A stretch of DNA of 41,190 nucleotides from an uncultured Candidatus Peribacteria bacterium (lineage in GTDB: Bacteria; Patescibacteriota; Gracilibacteria; Absconditabacterales; Absconditicoccaceae), in contig CAYXTU010000001.1 in NCBI GenBank assembly GCA_964468245.1, forward strand, positions 1 to 41,190, read 5' to 3'. Positions 10,418 to 16,106 of this stretch are shown one piece after another. The notes under the pieces are model-generated. The model saw only the letters and a program-made list of their open reading frames with translations, was not told where the DNA came from and did no database searches. Every line of letters starts with the position of its first letter. The first letter of the stretch is position 1. Both the position numbers and the translations under genes were made by a program.

Positions 10418-12229
10418 ATGGCTATCAGAAATATTGCTATTATTGCCCATGTCGATCATGGAAAAACCAGTCTTGTCGATAAGTTGCTTACGCAGTCGGG
10501 GACTATGAAAATGGCAGAAGATCAGAATCTTATTATGGATAGTAATGATCAGGAAAGAGAAAGAGGAATCACCATCTATTCCAAAAATACTTCCGTCAAT
10601 TACAAAGGTGATGTTATCAATATTATAGACACTCCGTGACATGCGGACTTTGGAAGTGAAGTGGAAAGGGTATTGAAAATGGTCGATAGCGTGTTATTGC
10701 TCGTTGATGCCTACGAATGACCTATGCCACAGACTAAATTTGTTTTGAAAAAATCTCTAGAACTTGGACTCAAACCGATTGTCGTGATCAACAAAATAGA
10801 CAAAGAAACTGCAAGGCCAACCTGGGTAATCAATCAGTTGTTTGATTTGTTTTTTTCGCTTGGTGCAACTGATGATCAAGCAGATTTTCCTATTATTTAC
10901 TGTAGCGCGAAAGGGGGATATGCGTTTGATGATATGAAGGATTTTGAAGAAGCAAAAGAACATGGAGATATCTTTCCGATTTTTGATTTGATAGAAAAAT
11001 ATGTCCAACCAGCAGCAGATTATTCTGATAAACCTTTTCGTATGCAGGTTGTTAACCTCGGATATGATGATTTCATCGGAAGACTTGGTATTGGAAGAGT
11101 ATATGAATGAACAGCAAAACCATGACAAGAAGTAGTGATTTTTGATAATGAAGGAGTCAAAAGAAAAGGAAAAATTACCAAAATATTTACGACGCTTGGA
11201 ATCTCTAGAGTAGAGACACAGCAGGCGCAATGCGGTGATATCGTGACTATTGCTGGTATCCCAAATATCTATGTAGGAGAAACCGTTGGTGTAGAATGAT
11301 GCGAAGCGTTTGCACCGATCAAGGTCGATGCACCGACATTGACGATGGATTTTTTGGTCAATGATTCGCCATTTGCTGGCAAAGAATGAAAGCTCGTAAC
11401 GTCAAAAAATATCCAAGAAAGATTGCATAAAGAACTCCAAACAAATGTCTGATTGGAAATTAATTTTGAAAAATGAGGAAATAGATTCGCGGTTTCTGGT
11501 AGAGGAGAACTCCACTTGTCCGTGCTTATCGAAACAATGAGAAGAGAGTGATTTGAGTTGCAAGTGTCTGCGCCACAAGTAATTTTCAAAGAAGAGAATG
11601 GTCACAAAACTGAGCCGATAGAACAAGTTATCATCAATGTCGATGAAAAACTTTCGGGAACGATTATCGATATGATCGCGAGAAAAAAATGACAAATGGT
11701 AAATATGTTTACGGTAAATGGAACGTCTACACTAGAATTTGAAGTGCCGACAAGAGGATTGCTCTGATTTAGATGACAGTTTGTCTTGGTGACGAAGGGG
11801 GAGTGAATTATCTACAGTTCGTTTTCTCATTACGCACCGTATAAGGGTGATATTCCCAAGAGAACAACTGGTTCTATGATTAGTCAAGAAAATGGAAAAT
11901 GTATGAAATATAGTATCCGAAAGTTGCAAGAAAGAGGGAAAATTTTCATTCTTCCGCAAGCTGCGATGTACGAATGAATGATTGTCTGAGAGTCTGCAAA
12001 GCCAGGTGATATGACGGTTAATTTGACTAAGAATAAACAACAGACCAATGTCAGAGAAAGTGGAAATGATGAGTCAATGCGATTGGAACCTATCATTCCG
12101 TTGACACTAGAAGACTCGTTGGCATATATTAGTACTGACGAATATGTAGAAATTACTCCAAAAAATATCAGACTCAGAAAAGTATTTCTTACGGATTCTG
12201 AGAGGAAGAAGAATTGAGTGAAAAAATAG
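10418..12229 (+). CDS. typA: translational GTPase TypA/BipA (603 aa)
   Basis: Motifs: [27 protein letters not shown] (TGA 10637-10639), NKIDK. I translated the whole central part (…[20 protein letters not shown]…). I count 16 in-frame TGA. Ends …KKNGVKK then TAG 12227-12229. Confidence 0.95.
12146..12229 (+). repeat. direct repeat, left copy (functional last 28 codons of typA)
   Basis: 79/84 nt identical to 13341-13424. All 5 differences are synonymous (ATT/ATC, ACG/ACT, AAA/AAG twice, TAG/TAA). Confidence 0.9.
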
Positions 12230-13340
12230 AAGACTACGTCTGTAATTACACCTACGGTCGTAATTTTTCTGTTGATTTTTTTGCAAAATTACTTCTTTTC
12301 TTTATACTTTATATTGTCTGTCGGGTTCGTCCCATTTTGCCGGACCAGTCTGATCTGGCACAGACATCAAAACGCTTCGCAATTTCTGCGGAGTTTTTTG
12401 ATTATAGCGAAAGTATATTTTTATTATTGAGTGAAAGTAGTGATTTCATTTGTGTTATTGCTGTTTGATTGAGTATTTGAAGTCTTTCTGATTGGGGTGT
12501 TTTCATTTTGATAAATTGTGCATTCATACTTTCTATATTTGCTAAAATAATTAATTGTTCAATAGTTGCTCCATCTCTTATATTTCATTTTCCATTTTTA
12601 TTTTCATCTCTTCGTTGTTTTGCTGTTTTGCCAAAAAGTGCTTTGTTGAGTATATCTGCCTCATCGGCGTAGATTACATTAATTTCTGTTGGTGAAAGCT
12701 CTTTTGGAATCAAATATTCTTTGATTGAATCTGTATGTATCTTGTAATTTACTTTTGTCAAAAATCTTTTTACATTCCAATCTAATGAGTTTGTTTCTTC
12801 TTGTTTGAGTCTTTGAAACTCTTTGATAAAATATAACCTAAACTCTACTGATATTCGATTGGCAAATTCTAATGCAATATCTTTGTGAGCAAATGTTCCT
12901 CATCCATATTTTCATGATTTACTGATAATGCCTATAGCTCCAGTCTTTTCTATCCATCTTTGGGGAGATAGAACAAAAGAATTGAAGCCTGCTTCGTTTT
13001 TAAACTGGTCGAATTCGACCAGTTTAAAAGTTGGATTATATAGTTGTTCCCAAAGACCTAAAAATGCTATAGTTTCTTTGTTTCTAAGCCAATTTTTTAC
13101 AACATCAGCTGGTAATAAGGGGTTTTTGTATTTGGCTATATCGGTTAGACTAATATAGTCAGCATCACTATTTTGAATGACTTTGATTTGTGTTCATTTC
13201 ACTTCTAAGATCAGAGATTCTGGCATTTTTTCTTGTTCAAGAAATAAAACTTCATATATGTGAAGTATAATTATTTCTTTCTGTATATCAAGATAATTTT
13301 TGACAAACGCTTTTTATTCTTTATAGAACTATCTTTTGTT
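12230..13340. mobile_element. ~1.1-kb single-gene insertion (KilA-N cassette) bounded by duplicated typA 3' ends
   Basis: Lies between the two 84-bp typA-end copies. Contains only the reverse-oriented KilA-N gene plus a structured GC-richer tail (12335-12400). No recombinase gene. Confidence 0.55.
12402..13226 (-). CDS. KilA-N domain-containing protein (274 aa)
   Basis: ATG 13226 to TAA 12404..12402, frame checked triplet by triplet, 4 in-frame TGA. Sequence ISLTDIAKYKN…VVKNWLRNKETIAFLGLWEQLYNPTFK.VEFDQFKNEAGFNSFVLSPQRWIEKTGAIGIISKSGKYGGGTFAHKDIALEFANRISVEFRLYFIKEFQRLK matches, from memory, the widespread phage-associated KilA-N family. Confidence 0.75.
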
Positions 13341-13424
13341 GTAGAAATCACTCCAAAAAATATCAGACTCAGAAAAGTATTTCTTACTGATTCTGAGAGG
13401 AAGAAGAATTGAGTGAAGAAGTAA
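13341..13424 (+). pseudogene. orphaned copy of the typA 3' end (28 codons incl. stop), probably the ancestral end
   Basis: Encodes the same peptide [27 protein letters not shown] as 12146-12229 and is followed directly by a strong terminator. No typA sequence lies upstream of 13341. Confidence 0.8.
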
Positions 13425-13447
13425 AAAAAGCCCGAAAGGGCTTTTTT
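13423..13447. terminator. bidirectional rho-independent terminator
   Basis: aaaaaa-agccc-gaaa-gggct-tttttt: perfect stem flanked by an A-run and a T-run, between convergent typA (relic) and the 59-aa ORF. Confidence 0.8.
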
Positions 13448-13527
13448 GTGTTAGTGATAATGTCAGAGTCTCGCAAGACGTCCGAAGGATTTCATTGTAG
13501 GCTCTGTTGTAGGTTTGTATATGATGA

Positions 13528-14283: not shown

Positions 14284-14296
14284 TAATTTAAAAAAT

Positions 14297-14548
14297 TTAA
14301 TGTTGGAAGTCTTTTGGTCTAAATTTATTTAATTCTGCTCGATCTATTTTTCCTCTTTCTAAAATAGCTTCTTTAGCTTCTTCTTTGAGTTCTCTTCGCT
14401 CTTCTCTTTTTTCTTCTGAGCTATAATTAACACAATGAAATTTGGGTATTGTTTTTCCAGAAAGAATATCTTCTACTTCTTGTGCTGCATCTCTATATGT
14501 TTTTGTTGTTTTGTTTTGTATTCCTTCTTCAAAATCTAACTCTTCCAT
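14297..14548 (-). CDS. small acidic hypothetical protein (83 aa)
   Basis: ATG 14548, TAA 14299..14297, no TGA. MEELDFEEGIQNKTTKTYRDAAQEVEDILSGKTIPKFHCVNYSSEEKREERRELKEEAKEAILERGKIDRAELNKFRPKDFQH. Starts 28 nt after the proS stop. Confidence 0.5.
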   Translation of the reverse strand: MEELDFEEGIQNKTTKTYRDAAQEVEDILSGKTIPKFHCVNYSSEEKREERRELKEEAKEAILERGKIDRAELNKFRPKDFQH

Positions 14549-14576
14549 GGTATATATAGTAAATAATTAAAAATTT

Positions 14577-16106
14577 TTAGTAACTTCTTGCAAACAAGAC
14601 TCTTTTTGTACTTGGCTTACCACTGTAGATACAAACTCACTTCCCGCCTTGCGGGATTTCGCTATCGCTTCAGCTCTTTTCTTCATCAAACGGTAAACAT
14701 CTGACGGTAGCGGCTGTTTCTTCCTTGATTTTGTCTGCTGTTTCTACGGTACCATCTCGGTGTGCCATGACAAATCCTTGTTGGATTTTTTCTTTGAATT
14801 CGTCGTAGGTGTCTACAACAAATGTGTGTGTTTCTCTATATTCTGCATTTTTTCTTAACAAATTATTTTGTGCTTTGTAGAGATATTGGTCGATATGAAG
14901 TTCTACATCTCAAATACTTACTGATGCTTTTTCTCCAGATTCTCTCTTGAAGACTTCTACCATACCACTTGCGATATCTCTTGCTCCGACAGTAATTCTG
15001 ACAGGTACGCCTTTGAGTTCGTATTCGTTGAATTTTCGTCCAGCAGATTTGTTGCTGTCTTCGTCAATCTTTCGTTTCAATGGAATGGTTTCGTGAAAAT
15101 ATTTGGATTTGAAGTCGAGTCTAGTGGTCTCCATCCTTTCGATGAGTGGCTGAATGTATTCTTTGATCTGAGAAAGTTCTTCTGGTGTTTTGAAAATAGG
15201 GACGATAACTACGTGGACAGGAGCGAGTGCTGGAGGCAAAATCAATCCGTTGTCATCTGAATGTGCCATAATCAATCATCCGATAAGTCTTGTAGATACT
15301 CATCGAGATGTTGCATATACATATTCTAATTCGTTCTTTTCGTTGGTGAATTTGACATCAAATGCTTTGGCAAAATTTTGTCCAAGGTTGTGACTTGTTC
15401 ACGCTTGGAGTGCTTTTCCGTCTTGCATCATAGGTTCGAATGTATAGGTTGCTACGGCTCCTGCGAATTTGTCGTGTTCTGGTTTGGTTCCCAATCTAGG
15501 TGAGATAGCCATGAAGTTGGTACAGAAATCGTTGTAGACGTCGAGCATTTTTCTTGCTTCATCGTCGGCTTCTTGTGCGCTTGCGTGCGCTGTATGTCCT
15601 TCTTGTCGCAAAAATTCTGCGCTTCTCAAAAATAATCTTGTCCTCATTTCTCGTCTCACTACGTTTGCTCGTTGATTGATAAGCAATGGTAAATCACGAT
15701 ACGAGTGAATCCAATCTTTGTAACTATTCCAAATAATTGTTTCTGATGTTGGTCTCACGATCAATTCTTCTTCAAGTTTGGCTTCAGGATCGACTACGAT
15801 TCCTTTTCCGTTTGGATCGTTCATAAGTCTATAATGTGTGACTATCGCACATTCTTTGGCGAAATGTTCTACGTGAGAAGCCTCTTTATTCAAAAAAGAT
15901 TTTGGGATAAATATAGGAAAATATGCATTGACGTGTCCGGTGTTTTTGAACATTCTGTCTAATACATCTCTGATGTTTTCTCGAAGTGCGAATCCGTAGG
16001 GTTTGATTACCATACATCATCTTACTGCTGAATTTTCTGCAAGTTCTCCTGCGAGTTGATTGTATCGTTCGCTGTAATCTTGTGCTCTAGTGGTTAATTT
16101 TGCCAT
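14577..16106 (-). CDS. proS: prolyl-tRNA synthetase, archaeal/eukaryote-like type (509 aa)
   Basis: Pieces 15399..16013, 14910..15275 and 14670..14861 share one frame; gaps checked and contain only [41 protein letters not shown]…, …[18 protein letters not shown]…, …[18 protein letters not shown]…. Ends …[42 protein letters not shown] then TAA 14579..14577, the canonical C-terminal Tyr. Confidence 0.95.

Follow-up and report, generated by a model that had tools for sequence, protein, structure and literature searches.

The interval between the convergent genes typA and proS of a candidate-phylum (CPR) bacterium is a true integrase-less hotspot, in which four small accessory genes are set between copies of the 3′ ends of their two neighbors. 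The footprint in the 41,190 nt of DNA analyzed (hereafter the window) is that of the known, unexplained 'insertion with long target duplication' (ILTD; PMC2853133). The preliminary description was right to propose an integrase-less cassette hotspot, but its suggestion of an undescribed system is not supported. Host recombination accounts for the footprint better than a new mobile machine does. We give about an even chance to the view that it arose by one homologous crossover in the gene end combined with one illegitimate join, either Campbell-type or similar to homology-facilitated illegitimate recombination (HFIR). Our confidence is equally middling that the array consists of recombination-built single-gene insertions with no self-mobilizing element.

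Copies of gene ends bracket single genes

The window uses genetic code 25, in which UGA encodes glycine, and its genes are therefore broken up by ORF tools that apply table 11. Code 25 raises the long-ORF content from 9194 to 26328 aa, and a TGA inside typA read as glycine gives DTPGHADFG. With this code, typA (BipA), the left anchor gene, spans 10418–12229 (+) and is 85–94% identical in amino acids to typA of relatives; the right anchor gene, proS (ProRS), spans 14577–16106 (−). The order of the array is proS, an 83-aa ORF, proS-end relic 1, a GNAT gene, proS-end relic 2, a 59-aa ORF, a terminator, a typA-end relic, a KilA-N gene and typA.

The attached copy of the typA end (12145–12231, +) comprises the last 28 codons including the stop, plus 2 nt. 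It matches a relic at 13340–13426 (+) over 87 nt with 94% identity (blastn E=2e-33), and the pair encloses the KilA-N gene only, in a cassette of 1108 nt (12232–13339, −). Frame and stop of the relic are intact, its peptide is identical, and all five nucleotide differences from the attached copy are synonymous. The cassette encodes a KilA-N domain protein of 274 aa (12402–13226, −; Pfam KilA-N E=1.1e-16) and carries a predicted promoter-like site belonging to that gene (13264–13291), together with a terminator-like hairpin that serves typA (12374–12394, +). The native terminator stands directly behind the relic, and the bidirectional hairpin at 13424–13447 (AAAAAAGCCC-GAAA-GGGCTTTTTT) is presumed to be the ancestral terminator of both typA and the proS-side array.

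On the other side, the attached copy of the proS end (14549–14622, −; the final 15 codons with the stop, and a 28 nt spacer) resembles relic 1 (14209–14279, −), which consists of GRQSERRVLFVRSY with its stop and a 25 nt spacer reaching the GNAT ATG. This pair shares a 53 nt core at 81% identity (E=7e-8) and encloses only the proS-proximal cassette, an acidic orphan ORF of 83 aa (14297–14548, −). The middle cassette encodes a GNAT acetyltransferase of 148 aa (13762–14208, −; Acetyltransf_1 E=9.7e-15), a 55% homologue of which is present at another place in relative L116. A third and more decayed copy of the proS end and spacer, relic 2 (~13708–13771, −), has a 6 nt deletion, overlaps the GNAT stop and lies upstream of the distal cassette, a 59-aa ORF (13528–13707, −) for which family searches gave no match. 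Decay of the three nested copies grows with distance from proS, and we infer that the 59-aa ORF is the oldest insertion on this side and the 83-aa ORF the newest. The motif AGTTACTAAAANTTTTNATTAT has three matches in the window, every one inside the array (0.08 expected). The claim that both 3′ ends are duplicated around small accessory ORFs is thus confirmed, and the case is stronger than stated. The third copy and genetic code 25 had both been missed.

No gene-end duplicates other than those of typA and proS were found in the window. Searches for an integrase, transposase or recombinase in the window, for an integrase in the fetched syntenic loci of relatives, and for conserved cassette ends were negative.

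The footprint recurs in relatives

The convergent pair is conserved in relatives, with a spacing of 12 nt to 3.6 kb. In a comparison with relatives, a check that the preliminary description had proposed, the pair is either empty, with 12 nt from stop to stop, or holds one of at least 10 other cargo sets. This cargo is generic flexible-genome material. The suggestion of defence-type cargo holds for the KilA-N gene alone. No further phage genes are present in the window interval or in relatives.

The hotspot proposal was to fall if further examples were lacking and the two loci proved to be unrelated local duplications; the footprint does recur. Beyond the three nested copies at proS, relative L090 carries an independent second event at typA, with different cargo and different repeat boundaries. 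In L001, a 212-aa ORF stands between two copies of a sortase 3′-end segment, again an independent event, and the same site is empty in L002 and in the window (10170–10232, +). A hairpin lies next behind the sortase relic in L001, and the typA repeat stops 2–5 nt ahead of the terminator stem. The junction positions of the typA repeat are the same in the window and in L002.

The repeats are target-derived and vary in length from 43 to 160 nt; their boundaries fall either at an ATG or 0–9 nt away from a stop codon. The repeats of typA, proS, the sortase gene and locus L004 share nothing beyond chance 7-mers, and junction microhomology is not visible among the repeats. A trans-acting recombinase that recognizes gene-end hairpins, as once suggested, is not in keeping with repeats that have no such core and vary in length and boundaries.

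The KilA-N gene and its family

The KilA-N gene corresponds to the PADLOC candidate defence gene PDC-S22 (phrog_2657). This identity, an enrichment of bracketing repeats and a covarying palindrome are new here. Family members share 55–70% amino acid identity from Nanoarchaeota to Bacteroidota. Target-derived bracketing repeats of 40–160 nt occur at about 18–21% of 74–81 family loci, in several phyla; they exceed the control 99th percentile at 17 of 81 loci and were detected at 13/74 KilA-N loci versus 8/204 neighboring genes (OR 5.2, p=4e-4). Detectable repeats are absent at about 80% of loci. The targets have no relation to one another, 5′ ends and intergenic DNA being among them, and the bracketed insert is always the 0.85–1.3 kb gene alone. 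Across contexts, DNA homology extends no farther than 30 nt to either side of the ORF, and element ends are therefore absent. The gene often has restriction-modification (R-M) genes as neighbors and often lies within R-M operons of type I and type III, in the same orientation as the operon.

The coding region contains a perfect 32 nt palindrome (12998–13029) that encodes FKLVEFDQFK. In 83 family loci this palindrome (30–32 nt) is conserved with compensatory covariation: 95.3% paired and 127 double-sided changes, values neither of which is reached in 500 shuffles. At 6 of 80 loci a truncated second allele, 60–69% identical, lies beside the full gene, which is the classic outcome of one-sided displacement. 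Three to four of seven such displaced-allele fragments end ~6 nt or less from the palindrome. The C-terminal half of the protein is helical in a low-confidence model. No PDB sequence match was obtained, and neither a catalytic fold nor a catalytic motif could be recognized (best structure match TM 0.24–0.29); a weak fold match is to DdrC, a DNA-break-binding, DNA-circularizing protein.

Differences between repeat copies

In seven coding repeats, differences between copies fall on codon positions 1, 2 and 3 in the ratio 12:8:42, and affect 38 codons synonymously versus 14 non-synonymously. By a codon-position test, a duplication that then decayed neutrally is rejected (p=7e-4) and two constrained alleles fit (p=0.24); when the proS repeat of the window is added, both simple models are rejected. 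The typA relic of L002 differs at 17 positions from its own attached copy and at 13–14 from the typA ends of other strains. At locus L038, two copies of the hsdM 5′ end begin with an ATG and six codons that differ at 9/18 nt, followed by 138 nt that are 97% identical, with no homology upstream of the ATG. The insert therefore brings the start of another hsdM allele.

Some relics have replacements where no functional allele varies (GKP to GRQ and FA to FV in the proS relics of the window; VEIT to IDIA in the typA relic of L002). They are therefore partly decayed, a point against a crossover origin. The three proS spacers are alike among themselves and unlike those of other strains, for which re-duplication in situ would be the more economical explanation. 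The synonymous bias could also be produced by true target duplication and subsequent allelic conversion of the relics by transforming DNA.

Origin of the array

The mostly synonymous differences, the boundaries at stop and start codons, and the other-allele start in L038 favor a homologous crossover joined to an illegitimate event. A cargo gene would enter on DNA that also bears the terminal 15–30 codons of typA or proS, its source probably being, in most cases, a relative that already holds the cargo just past the anchor gene. A RecA-type crossover in the conserved gene end would then be paired with an illegitimate join, either through single-crossover integration of a circularized fragment (Campbell-type) or through HFIR with linear transforming DNA. 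The product would be the gene with its newly arrived end, then the cargo, and then the old end with the old downstream DNA. The outer repeat boundary would mark the end of donor–recipient homology, at a stop or start codon, and the variable inner boundary the illegitimate joint. Repeated events on one anchor would shift older cargo and relics distally. The proS side would thus be a promoterless, co-oriented operon extension that ends at the old bidirectional terminator, and on the typA side a self-contained KilA-N gene would have been inserted with its own promoter.

The earlier suggestion of Campbell-type crossover of small circles with a gene-end patch is close to this best explanation and has direct experimental precedent (PMC3240628). 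Against this explanation, neither a donor/recipient pair nor a circular junction was seen, natural competence of the host is assumed, an earlier step is needed that puts each cargo beside the anchor gene, and such crossover alone cannot explain de novo KilA-N insertion at many unrelated targets.

Some de novo mechanism must exist, since unrelated targets bear the repeats in many phyla. True long target-site duplication would supply one: opposite-strand nicks 40–160 nt apart, made for example by a restriction enzyme or other nuclease, would be filled in and ligated to a foreign fragment. Near-identical copies in recent events (107/107 nt in L039; 94% for the window typA pair), the homologous proS spacers and the frequent adjacency of R-M genes to KilA-N suit this proposal. 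We nonetheless consider it rather unlikely, because staggered breaks cannot produce the L038 insert with its ATG and six codons of another allele, do not account for the skew toward third positions and synonymous changes, and do not predict clustering of outer boundaries at stop and start codons unless selection acts. We know of no enzyme that makes staggers of 40–160 nt. The idea goes back to the double-strand breaks of Furuta et al., who suggested DNA breakage as a common factor (PMC2853133). Still more doubtful is replication template switching (MMBIR-like), in which a fork stalled past the gene end, perhaps at a terminator hairpin, copies foreign or ectopic DNA and duplicates a segment on upstream re-entry. 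The hairpins close behind the typA and sortase repeats, the variable repeat length and the lack of element ends agree with it; the missing microhomology does not, and the allelic differences and L038 chimera are left unexplained. To our knowledge, no such process is documented for kilobase-size foreign inserts in bacteria.

Two readings that invoke an element appear very unlikely. In one, marginally the more credible, KilA-N (PDC-S22) would be a mobile element of one gene, autonomous or semi-autonomous, whose DNA-binding protein and conserved internal palindrome promote its own insertion, and perhaps that of neighbors in trans, with long target duplication. The repeat excess, phyletic breadth, transfer as a bare ORF, covarying palindrome with breakpoints nearby and weak DdrC match speak for it, as does the location of the lineage's additional non-KilA-N footprints in KilA-N-bearing genomes (the window's and L001). 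Yet the same footprint surrounds 83-aa, GNAT, 59-aa, 212-aa and 255-aa cargo and R-M inserts that lack KilA-N, the protein shows no catalytic fold, most family loci have no detectable repeats, and the enrichment may merely reflect high horizontal transfer of a selected defence gene. In the other, the repeats are attL and attR of small non-autonomous elements, mobilized by an integrase of the tyrosine or serine type that is encoded elsewhere and has gene 3′ ends as its targets. Integrases typically replace the 3′ end of a gene with a copy that the element brings along, and the identical junctions in the window and L002 would fit. Against this stand the absence of an integrase from the 41 kb and the syntenic loci, the lack of a common core, the differing boundaries at typA in L090, and the family's unrelated targets, 5′ ends and intergenic DNA among them. 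Finally, a larger prophage or island at typA and proS, cut down by internal deletion, is disfavored and highly improbable. KilA-N is a common phage gene, and prophages often integrate into gene 3′ ends; however, four separate islands would be required, every one of which must have shrunk to precisely one gene and kept its two att relics, the bracketed insert is the lone gene throughout the family, and other phage genes are missing. The 3′-end replacement produced by integrases is also discussed in PMC2853133.

Relation to known systems

A dedicated mechanism, as first argued for, is not supported, given that the footprint is that of described ILTD and that nested anchor-gene arrays are known from T6SS/Rhs loci (PMC5361080). 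ILTD was described for R-M genes (Nobusato et al., 2000, Gene 259:99; Furuta, Abe and Kobayashi, 2010, PMC2853133): its repeats often overlap a gene 3′ end (Fig. 3 legend), single genes such as mcrA can be inserted, and it is found mostly in naturally competent species. As in ILTD, inserts here lie within long (>30 bp), variable, target-derived direct repeats with neither integrase nor transposase. In contrast to ILTD, the cargo is KilA-N/PDC-S22, GNAT and orphan ORFs instead of R-M genes, and it sits in a CPR bacterium that uses code 25. Three copies are nested on one anchor, two anchors face each other, and our results suggest that the gene ends are alleles brought in by the donor and not the outcome of simple duplication.

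Single-crossover insertion-duplication and HFIR (de Vries and Wackernagel, 2002; Prudhomme et al., 2002; PMC3240628) likewise combine one homologous anchor with one illegitimate step and require no element-encoded enzyme. With one-end-homology substrates, 56 of 60 events were single-crossover duplications, across 109–950 bp of homologous gene end (Amarir-Bouhram et al., 2011, PMC3240628). Those were laboratory events with engineered substrates, whereas donor molecules were not observed here and the patches are only 45–90 nt, close to the shortest that RecA-dependent exchange can use.

HFIR has been proposed for the sequential displacement arrays at T6SS effector/immunity and Rhs/CDI loci (Kirchberger et al., 2017, PMC5361080; Jackson et al., 2009), where, as here, successive insertions beside a conserved upstream anchor gene push older 3′ ends and genes distally into a nested array. 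In those arrays, a functional toxin domain is displaced together with its immunity gene, and the array is explained by selection for immunity retention; here, the duplication covers only 15–28 terminal housekeeping codons, and cargo and anchor are unrelated. The proS side resembles integron gene cassettes in its promoterless, co-oriented single genes, added proximally and expressed from an upstream promoter, but IntI integrase, attI and attC are absent, and the repeats are copies of the anchor gene end rather than the imperfect inverted repeats borne by integron cassettes. Phage 'morons' are by definition parts of phage genomes, and flanking target duplications are not characteristic of them; like them and the hitchhikers of R-M operons (RhuM, KilA-N/PDC-S22), the KilA-N cassette is a single promoter-ORF(-terminator) unit found in variable contexts.

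Gene-end repeats between typA and proS

The window genome uses genetic code 25, of the Gracilibacteria/Absconditabacteria type. The typA frame reads "...NIIDTPGHADFG" through a TGA at 10637-10639, and the summed length of stop-to-stop ORFs (100 aa or longer) in the window grows from 9194 to 26328 aa once TGA is taken as glycine. Because this code is in use, tools set to translation table 11 split nearly every gene; their gene calls for the window are wrong, and any annotation must therefore be redone with code 25. When re-called in this way, the interval between the converging housekeeping genes typA (10418-12229, +) and proS (14577-16106, -) holds, all on the minus strand, a gene for a 274-aa KilA-N protein (12402-13226), a 59-aa ORF (13528-13707), a 148-aa GNAT (13762-14208) and an 83-aa ORF (14297-14548) for which no homologues were found. 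Read from proS, the order is proS, 83-aa ORF, relic 1, GNAT, relic 2, 59-aa ORF, a bidirectional terminator (13424-13447), the typA relic, KilA-N and typA, where a relic is a displaced second copy of a gene end and the attached copy is the one still joined to its gene.

The final 28 typA codons and 2 further nt (12145-12231) occur again at 13340-13426 (87 nt, 94% identity, E = 2e-33), and this pair encloses the KilA-N gene only. Frame and stop are intact in the typA relic, and its five differences from the attached copy (T/C, G/T, A/G, A/G and G/A) are all synonymous. A strong hairpin terminator lies directly 3′ of the relic. Within the KilA-N cassette lie a promoter-like site of its own (13264-13291, -) and a new terminator-like hairpin for typA (12374-12394, +).

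On the other side, the proS stop with the 15 codons before it and the 28-nt spacer behind it (14549-14622, -) recur at 14209-14279. This relic 1 matches the attached end at 81% identity, and the pair encloses the 83-aa ORF only. A third copy of the proS end and spacer, relic 2, lies at about 13708-13771, directly upstream of the 59-aa ORF; it is far more decayed than relic 1 and carries a 6-nt deletion. A 22-nt motif taken from relic 2 has three matches in the window, all inside the array, versus 0.08 expected. This third copy extends the duplicated ends at typA and proS that the preliminary description had reported and that our analysis confirms. The grading of relic decay fits successive insertions beside the proS stop, with the newest nearest proS. 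The proS-side ORFs are promoterless, are oriented as proS and each have a copy of the same spacer before them, and the array runs to a shared terminator; functionally, it is an operon extension. No other gene-end duplicates occur elsewhere in the 41-kb window, and no tRNA, tmRNA or ncRNA was found as target or cargo, the lone Rfam match being a sub-threshold artefact on the palindrome considered below.

The same site in related genomes

Metagenomes queried with the C-terminal part of typA yielded about 35 close relatives. The convergent typA/proS pair is conserved among them and the content of the interval varies widely, from 12 nt between the two stops in locus L143, an empty site, through single-gene intervals of 0.2-0.7 kb (dCTP-deaminase-like, His_Phos_1 or membrane protein) to as much as 3.6 kb. 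Altogether this site holds ten or more different cargo sets, among them MsrA/MsrB, a cyclodipeptide-synthase fusion, a metallophosphatase and orphans, and proS-side cargo is nearly all oriented as proS. With this diversity at a conserved gene pair and no integrase in the window, the earlier proposal of an integrase-less hotspot stands. The typA end is single-copy in about 30 relatives and the proS end in about 15.

Loci L002 and L003 share the KilA-N/typA-relic architecture of the window, with an 85-nt repeat of 81% identity and identical junctions. In L090 the typA relic has other boundaries and the cargo is a 255-aa alpha/beta-hydrolase-like ORF, and this locus therefore represents an independent event on typA. 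Scanning 478 kb of code-25 loci for further gene-end duplications revealed one at a third gene. In L001 the last 20 codons of a sortase gene are duplicated (about 55-62 nt; 55 nt at 93%) around a 212-aa ORF co-oriented with the sortase, and the native terminator directly follows the sortase relic. The window and L002 represent empty sortase sites, because there typA directly follows a sortase gene whose end is single-copy. Further examples, whose absence the preliminary description had named as part of what would refute its proposal, thus exist at typA and at sortase. In 14 relatives with other cargo no proS-end relics were detectable, so most insertions must either be old or have arisen with no duplication.

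Gene-end relics around non-KilA-N cargo were seen in two of three KilA-N-carrying lineage loci (the window at proS and L001 at sortase, but not L002) versus one of 14 loci without KilA-N (L090, among L088-L108), a count from a small, phylogenetically non-independent sample. This co-occurrence is compatible with recent activity or with mobilisation in trans.

The footprint of insertion with long target duplication

The window array is the footprint of insertion with long target duplication (ILTD), an already known kind of insertion, and not the undescribed mobile system that the preliminary description had proposed. The term was coined by Kobayashi's group for restriction-modification (R-M) genes flanked by long (>30 bp, reaching about 420 bp), variable duplications of the target and lacking any other mobile element, with repeats that often overlap a gene 3′ end (PMC2853133). 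This route of gene gain has been described since 2000, almost solely from R-M cases, and is still unexplained. As in ILTD, repeats longer than 30 bp (87 nt at typA; about 70 nt at proS, in two relic generations) bracket the inserts, which measure 0.27-1.1 kb and are thus below 20 kb; the repeat is single-copy at an empty site in related genomes (at sortase, the window and L002 versus L001); and no integrase, transposase or phage gene lies in or beside the insert. Unlike the cases of Furuta et al., the array has no R and M genes, its cargo being KilA-N, GNAT and orphan ORFs; the presence of R and M genes was, however, a screening criterion of those authors and not a mechanistic feature. ILTD cases come mostly from naturally competent species (PMC2853133). 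Of DNA-uptake genes, only one of ComEC type was seen, in the relative L004.

Pfam, NCBIfam, PHROG and PADLOC scans and annotation of the whole window revealed no mobility genes, and neither the window nor the syntenic loci encode an integrase, transposase or recombinase. The repeats at typA, proS, sortase and L004 have no shared core, having in common only 7-mers of the kind found in 79% of shuffles, and no microhomology is visible at their junctions. The dedicated mechanism put forward in the preliminary description therefore loses ground, given the missing recombinase and the missing common core, and the same observations count against a site-specific attL/attR element. An integron is rejected because there is no IntI, attI or attC and no shared inverted-repeat element between the cassettes, the repeats being direct copies of gene ends. 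Nor is the locus a diversity-generating retroelement: there is no reverse transcriptase, and the typA differences are all synonymous and not adenine-specific. Conserved ends or terminal inverted repeats, as well as a short fixed target-site duplication, are lacking for a DNA transposon, IS or MITE, and the repeats are variable at 43-160 nt. An assembly artefact is unlikely, since the repeat copies are non-identical and the architecture recurs in independent assemblies (the NCBI MAG window, Logan ERR3438381/2, the JGI locus L090 and the long-read chromosome L022). ILTD itself was first described from finished isolate genomes (PMC2853133).

Nested relics of an anchor 3′ end, the older ones more distal, also resemble the sequential-displacement arrays of T6SS effector/immunity and Rhs loci, for which homology-facilitated illegitimate recombination (HFIR) has been proposed (PMC5361080). 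The displaced units there are toxin C-termini with immunity genes, whereas here they are typA and proS ends with unrelated cargo. What is new relative to known ILTD is the non-R-M cargo, the housekeeping-gene anchors, the nested arrays and the CPR host, together with a family-wide enrichment and a conserved internal palindrome in the KilA-N genes. Here the footprint has stacked unrelated accessory genes into nested arrays that extend operons from housekeeping-gene ends, and the host is a CPR bacterium with a reduced genome and no integrase near the locus. This suggests that conserved gene ends serve as portable homology patches for gene gain where classical mobile elements are few.

Bracketing repeats across the KilA-N family

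The KilA-N protein matches Pfam PF04383 (E = 1.1e-16, above cutoff), phrog_2657 (E = 6e-56) and PADLOC PDC-S22 (E = 1.6e-123, profile positions 4-269 of 281); judged by these profiles, its gene is the candidate defence gene PDC-S22. More than 8000 homologues at 55-70% amino acid identity occur in Nanoarchaeota and from CPR bacteria through Bacteroidota and Proteobacteria. In 80 species-representative loci, the genes that repeatedly lie next to it in the same orientation are RhuM and those of type I and type III R-M systems.

To score bracketing, we aligned the 500 nt upstream of the KilA-N gene locally with the 500 nt on its downstream side and took the best match on the same strand. By this measure, 17 of 81 KilA-N loci score above the 99th percentile of shifted controls, and with gene-centred controls 13 of 74 KilA-N loci do so versus 8 of 204 (odds ratio 5.2, p = 4e-4). 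The bracketing repeats (43-160 nt) are heterogeneous and derived from the target. They correspond to the 3′ end of the upstream gene including its stop (L057, L026, L052, L049 and L083), to the 5′ end of the downstream gene (L038, and L076, where the repeat begins exactly at the ATG), to a promoter plus first codons (L039 and L081) or to intergenic DNA (L017, L082 and L004). Family-wide, the insert within the repeats is always the gene alone, at 0.85-1.3 kb. DNA homology across contexts ends within about 30 nt of the ORF, and family members in different contexts share no conserved ends or terminal inverted repeats.

A truncated second KilA-N allele with 60-69% nucleotide identity lies beside the full gene in 6 of 80 loci (L010:4001-4350, L056:4001-4261, L065:4001-4249, L066:282-517, L077:4001-4372 and L046:5000-5125), with two nested in L010; this is the standard outcome of one-sided displacement. 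With thousands of members, the footprint in about one-fifth of the sampled loci and frequent displaced alleles, PDC-S22 offers enough independent events for the rules of ILTD to be inferred statistically.

A role of the KilA-N protein as nuclease or recombinase is unsupported by profile, PDB sequence and fold searches: no catalytic fold was seen, and the PDB sequence search gave no match. In the structural model (md535678bbd0f) the N-terminal domain is confident and the C-terminal half is a helical region of low confidence. Its best Foldseek match is Deinococcus DdrC (E about 1e-3, TM only 0.24-0.29), and the Mbp1 APSES domain is also among the best structural matches. DdrC is a non-catalytic DNA-break-binding protein with DNA-compacting and DNA-circularising activity, and the modelled likeness to it is only a hint.

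A conserved palindrome within the KilA-N gene

A perfect 32-nt palindrome (12998-13029) lies within the KilA-N coding sequence and encodes the conserved peptide FKLVEFDQFK. Its 30-nt core, TTTAAA-N4-TCGAATTCGA-N4-TTTAAA, occupies the same position in 83 family loci across phyla (alignment A9) and forms on average 13.65 of 15 Watson-Crick pairs, compared with 8.79 ± 0.16 when the same peptides are encoded by random synonymous codons. The arms covary as CTGG/CCAG, CCCG/CGGG, CCCC/GGGG, CACA/TGTG and GGGG/CCCC, so that residues 3 and 8 of the peptide covary as reverse-complement codon pairs (L/Q, P/G, G/P and H/V). In the alignment, 95.3% of cells are paired versus 80.9 ± 0.7 in shuffles, and 127 cells have double-sided changes versus 29 ± 4.5, neither value being reached in 500 shuffles. 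The signal is lost once the partners slide by one column or more.

No Rfam family or literature match for the palindrome was found. It is a candidate for an RNA hairpin, a DNA cruciform or hairpin, or the operator of a co-evolving dimer, and counts of G.U versus A.C do not separate the RNA and DNA roles. Of seven displaced-allele fragments, three or four have their breakpoint no more than about 6 nt from its 3′ edge, and L056 retains an isolated extra palindrome; the site may therefore be a hotspot of recombination or breakage. The palindrome is a concrete candidate for a cis element, or else for a new structured RNA or DNA motif.

Origin of the duplicated ends

We favour, at roughly an even chance, a Campbell- or HFIR-type process that combines homologous and illegitimate recombination. 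The donor would already carry the cargo next to the same gene, and its homology with the recipient would end at the stop or the ATG. The outer repeat boundary lies 0-9 nt from a stop codon, or at an ATG. Across seven coding repeats, copy differences fall on codon positions 1, 2 and 3 in the ratio 12:8:42 (38 synonymous and 14 non-synonymous codons). Duplication with neutral decay is rejected on this distribution (p = 7e-4), and two constrained alleles are consistent with it (p = 0.24); with the proS repeat added, neither simple model fits. In L038, both hsdM 5′ copies open with the ATG and six codons showing mismatches at 9 of 18 nt, followed by 138 nt at 97% identity, and the upstream DNA has no homology. 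The insert thus brings along the beginning of another hsdM allele, an outcome that no staggered cut can give. True target duplication at a staggered break is accordingly unlikely on both counts, the codon positions and the foreign hsdM start. The affinities of the L002 relic are in line with a donor-allele origin of the attached copy and a recipient-allele origin of the relic, no donor having been identified, and the 84-nt typA ends have weakly resolved phylogenetic affinity that does not assign donor and recipient copies. Substrates with homology at one end are known to give mostly single crossovers of circularised molecules, with gene-end duplications of 109-950 bp in 56 of 60 events (PMC3240628). 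With this precedent, the copy-difference bias and the L038 chimera, the Campbell-type crossover named in the preliminary description holds up as a candidate, and the allelic differences between copies point to ordinary homologous plus illegitimate recombination. We go no higher than an even chance because of the codon test with proS and four further considerations. Relics, those of the window included, have replacements where every functional allele keeps the same residue (GKP to GRQ and FA to FV in proS; VEIT to IDIA in L002 typA); the three proS spacers of the window are similar to each other and unlike those of other strains; a similar synonymous bias could result if transforming DNA later converted relics to other alleles; and homologous recombination leaves the first placement of the cargo beside its anchor unexplained.

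Among the other explanations, replication template switching appears quite improbable. Mobility driven by the KilA-N protein itself is very unlikely, the modelled protein having no catalytic fold, and a trans-acting integrase is very improbable too, with none in the window or syntenic loci and no core shared by the repeats. Decay of a larger island is scarcely credible. A bolder and distinctly doubtful idea is that PDC-S22-type KilA-N genes are widespread recombinase-free single-gene mobile elements, with the palindrome acting in cis and the protein in trans. The palindrome, which compensatory changes maintain across phyla, would be the cis-acting site of breakage, priming or recombination; displacement breakpoints may cluster there, and insertion may yield the long target duplications. 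The DNA-binding KilA-N protein would possibly bridge or circularise DNA breaks in trans, in the manner of DdrC. If true, the 25-year-old ILTD puzzle would thereby be solved, at least for the PDC-S22 family, and neighbouring promoterless cassettes, such as the stack behind proS, would possibly be mobilised as well.

Other genes and repeats

The sole nuclease-type accessory gene within the window encodes a 646-aa OLD-family protein (2032-3972, +) with an AAA_15/AAA_21 ATPase and an OLD-like TOPRIM nuclease domain, likely a defence nuclease. The isoleucyl-tRNA synthetase (1378-1393 aa; 17815-21951, -) contains inserted NUDIX and His_Phos_1 (phosphoglycerate-mutase-like) domains, an unusual fusion also kept in a relative (L001:2310-6491). 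A 1554-aa surface-type protein (29133-33797, -) has internal modules of about 200-400 nt with 73-92% identity (repeats at 31717-33094) and accounts for the remaining self-similarity matches of the window.

Direct repeats surround sortase genes in L106 (1530-1750 and 2757-2979; 223 nt, 87%) and L133 (3414-3469 and 4580-4635; 56 nt). Their sequence resembles a structured leader with the GC-rich hairpin CCCCCGGTAATTACCGGGGG, and they could stem from a further event of long target duplication or from duplication of a 5′ leader. In L107, a 165-nt direct repeat (2686-2850 and 3105-3269; 88%) copies the 3′ end of a 340-aa ORF, the copies lying 254 nt apart with no clear gene between them. An intergenic repeat family of GATAAAATGATAAATGCT...CGCGATAAA units occurs in the window at 6690-6727, 16110-16158, 21956-22114 (in tandem) and 41132-41190, upstream of or adjoining proS, ileS and other genes, and L001 has a related intergenic element, of a different GC-rich type, between sortase and typA.
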